From Escherichia coli (lineage in GTDB: Bacteria > Pseudomonadota > Gammaproteobacteria > Enterobacterales > Enterobacteriaceae), in assembly GCF_003334315.1 (NCBI RefSeq), contig NZ_QOWR01000030.1: a stretch of DNA of 51,845 nt; one strand, 5' to 3'. The notes below the pieces were generated by a model. That model worked only from the letters and a program-made list of their open reading frames with translations. It was not told the origin of the DNA and ran no database searches. Each line of letters opens with the position of its first letter. The stretch's first letter is position 1. Of this stretch, positions 47,161-51,845 are shown one piece after another. Position numbers and translations under genes: made by a program.

Positions 47161-50131
<2,971 letters not shown>

Positions 50132-50301
50132 TATCAATCCTTGATAATTCGGTTTGCGCTATGGTGCATCAATTCCCCTGACGGAGATATCGCAACACGC
50201 CGCTTCATTAAAAATTCAGAATATATCAAGGTATTGGGGACTCACTGTCAGGAATAATTATCCCCAATTAATCAAAGGGTTAAGAAATATTACGTTGTGG
50301 A

Positions 50302-51641
50302 TCAATACAACTCATCAAGTTTTCTCATCGCTTGTTCCCGTATTGCGCGCGTCTTACCGTTAAGCGCCAGCTGGCGGACTAAATCCAGTTCAGGGTTAAC
50401 AAGCTCTAACGCCAGCAAAGGATCACGTTTCAGCCTCGCCTTTAATACATCAACTGGAAAACGGGGATTATTCATCGCCACAATCCACCACTCGGGATCA
50501 ATTTCTGCCGCCAGTACTGCAGGCGGTGTGTGGCGGTTGTTAAGTGCGCCGAACTTGAAAAATGTGAGATTGCTTTTCGCCAGTGTACTCCACCATATAC
50601 GATCCGGTTGTTTTGCCAGTACATCCAGTTGTGCTAACGCATCGGGGTCGAGTGCATAATAGACGCGTAATGCTTCATCAACCTGCGCACGGGAGCTGTT
50701 TTCCTGCCTCAGAAAAAACTTCGCCCAAATATCATTGCGTGGCGTATTTTGCTGTAATTCCTTGAGGACAACAGCGGGTAAATTATCCCAACTAACTAAT
50801 GCACTCTCTAAAAAGTCCCAGTCTTCCGAACGTATCAGAGAGGTGGCATTTAATAGCATCTGGTCATCAACTTCACCGTAGCTGATAAGCTCAGACAAAA
50901 TCATATCAGCGCTGGTTTCATATGCAGCTGAATCTGCTTTCGGATTATTTTTCCGATGTGATAAAGCACGTTGCCAAATTTTTTGTTTCATCGCCGTACT
51001 CAGATACTGATTTTTCGCCAGATTACTCCACCCCTCAGGATCGTTGAAACGTGTCAATAACCGTTGTAAAGCAGCGTCAGAGTGAATTACCTGCATATCC
51101 CGACAGCAAAAGTAGGCAGGGGATTTTTTCTCCATCCTTTTAACAAAATTAAACTGTAAGTTATCTGGCAATGCTAAAAATAACACATGTATTAGATCAT
51201 CGTCATTCTCGAATTTTTGGTATAAATAGGCTGCAACTTTGTCACTCTCTTGTGGCGTCATCCGCAATAATTGACCATGGTGTTTCATCTCTGCCAGCTT
51301 GAACGCTAAGCTTGTGACAACATTGTTTGATGAATCGTTCGCCAACTGCATTGCCTGATTGTAGGTGAGTTGTCCTCCAGCACCGACCTGACGAATAGAG
51401 GAATCATCACTGCGGATATAGCCATCAATAATGGATTCAGGCAATAACCACGCATCTTTATAAAGCTCCTGAATGATCATATCCCAATCTCTTTTCGCCA
51501 GAGTCATTACGATATCCAGAGGGAGATTTTCACGTAGCGCAAGATTCAACGGACCGACACCATCAGGTAGACGACTCATTCGCGTCATTATTTCGACAGA
51601 GAGCGGTTCACGGTCGAGCAACCCCAGAACAACAGGCTGGT
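50302..51641 (-). pseudogene. HEAT/LRV-repeat protein gene truncated at its 5' end by IS1 (possibly ydbD remnant)
   Basis: 439-aa ORF from first TTG (50302..51621); the frame stays open upstream to the IS1 end at 51642 with no plausible native start; helical repeats (PxxVLxxLAxDPD...). Confidence 0.5.
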
Positions 51642-51845
51642 GGTGATGATGCCAACTTACTGATTTAGTGTATGATGGTGTTTTTGAGGTGCTCCAGTGG
51701 CTTCTGTTTCTATCAGCTGTCCCTCCTGTTCAGCTACTGACGGGGTGGTGCGTAACGGCAAAAGCACCGCCGGACATCAGCGCTATCTCTGCTCTCACTG
51801 CCGTAAAACATGGCAACTGCAGTTCACTTACACCGCTTCTCAACC
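51642..51845 (+). mobile_element. IS1 insertion sequence, left end (partial; continues beyond window)
   Basis: ggtgatgatgccaacttactgatttagtgtatgatggtgtttttgaggtgctccagtggcttctgtttctatcagctgtccctcctg... matches the IS1 terminal inverted repeat (one mismatch) and the insA leader/coding sequence. Confidence 0.9.
51697..51845 (+). CDS. insA: IS1 InsA (partial, 5' portion)
   Basis: GTG at 51697 then [48 protein letters not shown]..., the zinc-finger N-terminus of InsA. Confidence 0.85.

Follow-up and report, generated by a model that had tools for sequence, protein, structure and literature searches.

IS1, known from the Enterobacteriaceae as IS1A and IS1B, is about 768 bp in full length; its insB' is read through a -1 frameshift, and its right end is an inverted repeat. 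Its insertions usually give 9-bp target duplications and are polar in both orientations. The gene ydbD (b1407) of Escherichia coli is intact in strain K-12, where it has 768 codons and no IS1 at the site described here, and it is met in the literature in passing mentions only; the experimental leads found are the sigma-E induction of E. coli ydbD (PMC2731931) and the sweeps of ydbD reported in E. coli B populations selected with iron(III) (PMC12466345). A search of the literature for IS1 in ydbD found no paper.

The stretch of E. coli DNA analysed here, referred to as the window, is 51,845 nucleotides of contig NZ_QOWR01000030.1. Whereas ydbD of K-12 is uninterrupted, that of the window has an IS1 at codon 323, and the window ends inside the element, so that neither the right end of the element nor the 5' part of ydbD is seen in this molecule (Table 1). 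The reading favoured, with a probability of about 0.85, is that of a simple transposition of IS1 into ydbD with a 9-bp duplication, in a gene that was already a pseudogene, as a neutral and recent event that left a silent fragment.

The first-pass annotation had placed the left end of an IS1 at 51642, which the terminal repeat and the identity to annotated copies show to be exact to the base. The + strand reads ...caacaggctggt and then GGTGATGATGCCAACTTACTGAT..., with the 51641/51642 boundary between the two, and from there to the window end there are the leftmost 204 of the approximately 768 bases of the element. The 23-nt left inverted repeat (IRL) is the single match in the window to a degenerate IS1-end pattern, which gave no match in 100 shuffles. 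When compared with the IS1 terminal repeat GGTGATGCTGCCAACTTACTGAT, 22 of its 23 bases agree with IS1A and all 23 with an IS1B-family copy. Across the 204 bases, 203 are identical to the annotated IS1A of isolate F467, where the sole mismatch is an A for C at base 8 of the IRL, and 204 of 204 to the first bases of a copy annotated as 'IS1B family' in strain PSS-08-2. This base is at window position 51649, giving GGTGATGATGCC in the window as against GGTGATGCTGCC in IS1A, and the A variant is common to the IS1B-family copy. The GTG start of insA is at 51697, about 55 bases in from the left end, and the window holds its first 49 codons, which encode InsA; the terminal repeat, the insA start and these codons match known IS1. 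The direction of insA is away from the ydbD fragment, the element being opposite in orientation to ydbD.

On the other side of the boundary are 1,340 nt that align without gaps to nt 968-2307 of K-12 ydbD, with approximately 98% nucleotide identity, and that agree at every base with the 3'-terminal 1,340 nt of ydbD in E. coli strain H7 (NZ_CP010171.1). The gap-free alignment establishes that the disrupted gene is ydbD, which had been suggested on the basis of position. Orthology to b1407 is also supported by position, there being a ynbA remnant directly downstream of the fragment; the genes towards ynbA are those of K-12, and the C-terminal DUF2773 domain is shared with it. The breakpoint is inside codon Tyr323, where the frame of 768 codons is interrupted. 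The native coding part that is retained has 445 full codons, within which there is no frameshift or stop. From its stop codon at 50302-50304, the minus-strand frame is open past the boundary and for about 37 codons into IS1. Reading on from the upstream stop, the first ATG, GTG or TTG encountered is the TTG at 51621, within native ydbD sequence, and there is no native start between this TTG and the IS1 boundary (51641), which bears out the earlier observation of a frame open up to the boundary with no native start of its own. The size given for the fragment at that time, about 440 aa or 439 aa, is correct when counted from this mechanical TTG, but does not describe the native part.

Beyond the spacer, at 48467-50137 (-), 1,610 bp of the K-12 sequence have been deleted in frame between direct repeats of 9 bp, with the junction at 49937-49945. 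Codons 1-65 of ynbA are fused to ynbC from codon 97, with ynbB removed, leaving a hybrid ORF of 554 aa. The deletion is common to H7, F467, CP122507.1, and several draft contigs, in which it is annotated as two pseudogene pieces.

Table 1. Features at the IS1 junction in ydbD, by window position.
Feature	Position	Strand	Basis
ydbD-ynbA intergenic spacer, layout as in K-12	50138..50301	.	Comparison with K-12, blastn alignment
ydbD 3' fragment, codon 323 (part) to 768 plus stop; predicted C-terminal alpha-solenoid part	50302..51641	-	Gap-free alignment, identity to H7
DUF2773 (PF10971), YdbD residues 688-768	50305..50547	-	Pfam
Target ACCAGCCTG, ydbD nt 968-976; putative IRL-side copy of the 9-bp duplication	51633..51641	-	Same 9 bases before the IS1 right end in L011
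Left part of IS1, IS1B-like variant	51642..51845	+	203/204 to F467 IS1A, 204/204 to PSS-08-2 IS1B-family copy
IRL GGTGATGATGCCAACTTACTGAT	51642..51664	+	Single match in window, 0 in 100 shuffles
insA, first 49 codons	51697..51845	+	Translation

The RefSeq annotation of ydbD is 'DUF2773 domain-containing bactofilin'. In K-12 YdbD (positions 5145-7448 of record L002), the DUF2773 match has E = 2.3e-45, and PF10971 is also on record for products of 425 and 428 aa identical to the window fragment. Bactofilin (PF04519) is a weak match to residues 78-138 of the K-12 protein (E = 0.05), in a part of the gene outside the window. The protein had been described from its repeats as a helical-repeat protein of the HEAT/LRV type, and this is right in kind, although E. 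coli YdbD itself has no formal match: no LRV or HEAT Pfam model was found on K-12 YdbD at E<=10, DUF2773 and the weak Bactofilin match being the only ones listed. The evidence is from its homologues, where among 39 aligned sequences LRV_2 is found in 6, LRV in 5, and HEAT_2 in 1 (E<=0.001), and from the structural model. The family is a rare one, a search of 1.84 billion proteins at E<=1e-3 giving 157 representatives; some homologues are full-length, at 21-31% identity, and the family consensus has repeated D..VR..LA motifs. Searches of NCBIfam and of PDB sequences with YdbD gave nothing usable, with one sub-threshold MinC-like match in the beta-helix.

The AlphaFold model of YdbD, made with the alignment of 39 sequences, is confident, with a mean pLDDT of 88.7 and a pTM of 0.79, and predicts a strand-rich beta-helix at residues 70-181 followed by short paired helices at residues 188-768, as a continuous alpha-solenoid. 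YdbD would therefore be a bactofilin-like beta-helix joined to an LRV/HEAT-type solenoid of approximately 580 residues. By Foldseek the closest PDB structures are HEAT solenoids, among them the PP2A A subunit, karyopherin-beta2, and CAND1, at probabilities of about 1 but TM-scores of only 0.2-0.28. Proteins with LRV (PF01816), LRV_2 (PF25591), or HEAT_2 (PF13646), among them the PP2A A subunit and karyopherin-beta2, are alpha-solenoids as the model is over residues 188-768 or thereabouts; the solved HEAT proteins, however, are without the N-terminal beta-helix of the YdbD model, and the TM-scores are low. IS1 sits within the predicted alpha-solenoid part of the protein.

In K-12, comparison at the ydbD locus confirms that IS1 is not present here, as the first-pass annotation had suggested. 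A 241-nt probe across the boundary has no single-piece match in any of 5,426 complete E. coli genomes; 24 records have a coverage of the probe of 80% or more, and in all of them the match is in two pieces, with IS1 at other positions or distances. Its absence from all of these genomes makes the insertion specific to a strain or clone, as had been proposed, and the junction may be useful as a marker of the strain or clone. Many genomes, strain H7 among them, are 100% identical in one piece to positions 28000-51641 of the window and have no IS1, ydbD continuing through the site. That genomes of the H7 type are identical up to the junction and lack the element indicates that the insertion is recent relative to that lineage.

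For the other side of the element, the product expected of a 9-bp duplication was predicted from the H7 allele, together with the alternatives for 8 bp and 10 bp. With 9 bp, the 5' piece of ydbD would run ...TTG GGT TAC CAG CCT G/GG TAA, the stroke marking the junction, and its product would end in ...LGYQPG*. This product is present exactly in a collection of 15 billion proteins, from which the 8-bp and 10-bp products are absent. It is encoded by contig 119 of the Logan assembly of SRR1122540 (here L011), where ydbD up to nt 976 is joined to the right end of IS1. The junction in L011 is ...GGGTTACCAGCCTG followed by GGTAATGACTCC, also written ...TTGGGTTACCAGCCTG followed by GGTAATGACTCCAACTTATTGATAGTG and ...ttgggttACCAGCCTG followed by ggtaatgactccaacttattgatagtg. 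On the ydbD strand of the window, the IRL is followed by ACCAGCCTGTTG, also written ACCAGCCTGttg. The two junctions are reciprocal and of matching orientation, with ACCAGCCTG on both sides. L011 is identical to strain H7 at 3804 of 3805 bases over paaX-pdxI-ydbD, which would place it in the same lineage as the window, and its pdxI-paa flank is intact. It is from a different data source, and overlaps the window by no more than the 9 bases of the duplication. The contig of SRR1122540 that would carry the window's side of the junction was not found: 10 candidate partial products, as expected of a short-read contig that breaks off within the IRL, are absent from the protein collection. The 425-aa and 428-aa products on record were considered as the window's junction and rejected, as ydbD in their contigs is broken differently, by an IS1 of either orientation at a distance of 27-35 bp, by another element, or by a nonsense codon.

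A two-sided 9-bp duplication is most likely for the IS1 of the window, on the strength of the junction in L011, a source other than the window's own. As same-lineage reads carry the reciprocal junction with this duplication, the 5' 976 nt of ydbD are most likely just past IS1, and the earlier statement that the gene has lost its 5' end probably does not hold for the whole genome. An IS1B-like element would have transposed into ydbD between codons 323 and 326, in the opposite orientation, with duplication of the 9-bp target ACCAGCCTG. The remainder of IS1 and the 5' part of ydbD would then follow the window end, where approximately 564 more bases of IS1 ending ...ATCAATAAGTTGGAGTCATTACC are predicted, then CAGGCTGGT (+), which would be the second copy of the target, then ydbD from nt 967 to nt 1. 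Given the clustering of IS insertions around this site, there is a small chance that L011 has a separate insertion in the same 9 bp.

IS1 promotes adjacent deletions. The window ends within IS1 with its other side outside, in a region that is otherwise decaying, as shown by the ynbA-ynbC deletion, all of which would also be compatible with an adjacent deletion or inversion mediated by the element. In that event, 5' ydbD, perhaps with pdxI and the paa genes, would be gone or relocated, and there would be no target duplication. This is distinctly unlikely given that the same-lineage contig L011 has the reciprocal junction, the 9-bp duplication, and an intact pdxI-paa flank, and that the product for 9 bp was found as predicted where those for 8 bp and 10 bp were not.

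The simple insertion appears to have occurred in a gene that no longer encoded YdbD. In strain H7, ydbD has a length of 2,306 bp, one T having been lost from a run near nt 109 (T6, against T7 in K-12), and this 1-bp deletion brings in a stop after 57 codons. The exact 80-nt frameshift allele of H7 is present in 65 complete genomes (65/3,924), including several that match the window at 100%, and the 57-aa product of the frameshifted gene is found on at least 1,000 contigs. At positions 2833-2900, L011 has this frameshift and also a CAG to TAG change at ydbD codon 23, the latter being its sole difference from H7 in 3,805 bases. Since the frameshift is widespread in the absence of IS1, it is the older of the two lesions; ydbD was probably already inactivated in this lineage before IS1 arrived, by the 1-bp deletion near nt 109, which the window's strain would share to judge from its relatives. 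Another, independent lesion is seen in CP122507.1 and Logan ERR1622949 (L003/L004), in which the frameshift allele has a CAG to TAG change at ydbD codon 324, one codon after the IS1 breakpoint of the window; the downstream ORF is the same 425 aa, and there is no IS.

The first-pass annotation implied that function had been lost through IS1, which is overstated: the closest relatives are already frameshifted, and L011 has a nonsense codon in addition. It is unlikely that IS1 inactivated a functional ydbD in the source strain, as a true loss of function that was possibly selected. The absence of any frameshift or stop over the 445 codons of the 3' fragment would fit such an event, as would the intact gene in most of the genomes carrying ydbD, the repeated breakage of ydbD by IS elements, and the sweeps in iron(III)-selected E. 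coli B (PMC12466345); but all of the nearest relatives examined, and L011, carry the frameshift allele, and the window fragment is 100% identical to that pseudogene allele. A frame that stays open as far as the edge of an IS is not in itself a sign of recent inactivation, and the gene here was probably already dead. That ydbD was already dead, within a region in decay that includes the 1.6-kb ynbA-ynbC deletion, would make the insertion a neutral, recent event.

Most likely, no protein is made from the C-terminal fragment. A simple consensus scan, which may miss weak or hybrid promoters, found no minus-strand promoter-like site in 51400-51845, the visible IS1 and the junction; the sole promoter-like site on the + strand, at 51649-51676, is in the IRL, upstream of insA. 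The suggestion that expression would depend on read-out from IS1 therefore finds no support, as no promoter-like site faces ydbD and insA points away. That a new truncated protein of 425-439 aa is made from the left end of IS1 or from a hybrid promoter at the junction is highly improbable: the frame is open across the junction, with in-frame candidate starts at TTG 51621, ATG 51588, and ATG 51579, and the model predicts an autonomous-looking run of helical repeats, but there is no obvious Shine-Dalgarno motif before these starts on inspection of the sequence, insA transcription runs the opposite way, and the N-terminal leader is missing. The first 27 residues of YdbD, which the fragment lacks, are the only low-confidence stretch of the model.

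Across the complete E. coli genomes, ydbD is present in 3,991 of 5,426, approximately a quarter being without the gene. A 400-nt probe across the site matches 3,960 genomes, and in 96 of these the match is broken at the site. Of 60 evenly sampled records, most have an uninterrupted ydbD, about 8 have the 2,306-bp form, and 4 are IS-broken or partial. That about 8 of 60 genomes have a ydbD one base short, as against only 65 of 3,924 with the exact H7 allele, may be due to several independent 1-bp deletions, or to one deletion on diverged backgrounds.

Other IS-broken alleles of ydbD are those of F467, PSS-08-2, the 042 lineage, and the truncated form in Shigella flexneri 2a, which have IS1 in either orientation, often within a few hundred bases of the site in the window, but with a different insertion point in every one examined. 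F467 has one IS1 in ydbD, 138 nt from the 3' end. In PSS-08-2 (L012, NZ_AP027679.1) there are two copies in the gene, at 1784-2551 and 3977-4744, one of the IS1A type and one of the IS1B type, the latter having the same variant at base 8 of the IRL as the window. 9-bp duplications can be read directly at two of these elements, being AGCCTCGCC in F467 and TTAGACCCC at the IS1B-type copy in PSS-08-2. Within about 40 bp of the site there are four more IS junctions, in the first 100 or so bases of the records L005-L009 (corresponding to window positions of approximately 51600-51641), with the right end of IS1 at two positions, the left end at a third, and another element in L005 (AMSK01000045.1). 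These four were retrieved through the shared 428-aa product, which exists only when the gene is broken just upstream, and are therefore a biased sample. A strong claim of an IS1 hot spot was rejected, because the cluster of junctions is biased in this way and ydbD is mostly uninterrupted in the even sample.

The insertion in the window, which hit an accessory gene, is a case of ordinary strain-specific genome decay, in which the element, the gene, and the mechanism are already known. That independent IS1 insertions, frameshifts, nonsense codons, and absence of the whole gene recur across lineages might suggest that in E. coli and Shigella ydbD is inactivated by preference or under selection, of which the window would be one more instance, but this is unlikely. 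The absence of ydbD, its frameshifts in a sizeable minority, and the presence of IS1 at many positions could merit a look at the population level. Were some niche to favour the loss of YdbD, an envelope-stress-linked protein of beta-helix and alpha-solenoid, the pattern would hint at a function for this uncharacterised gene.
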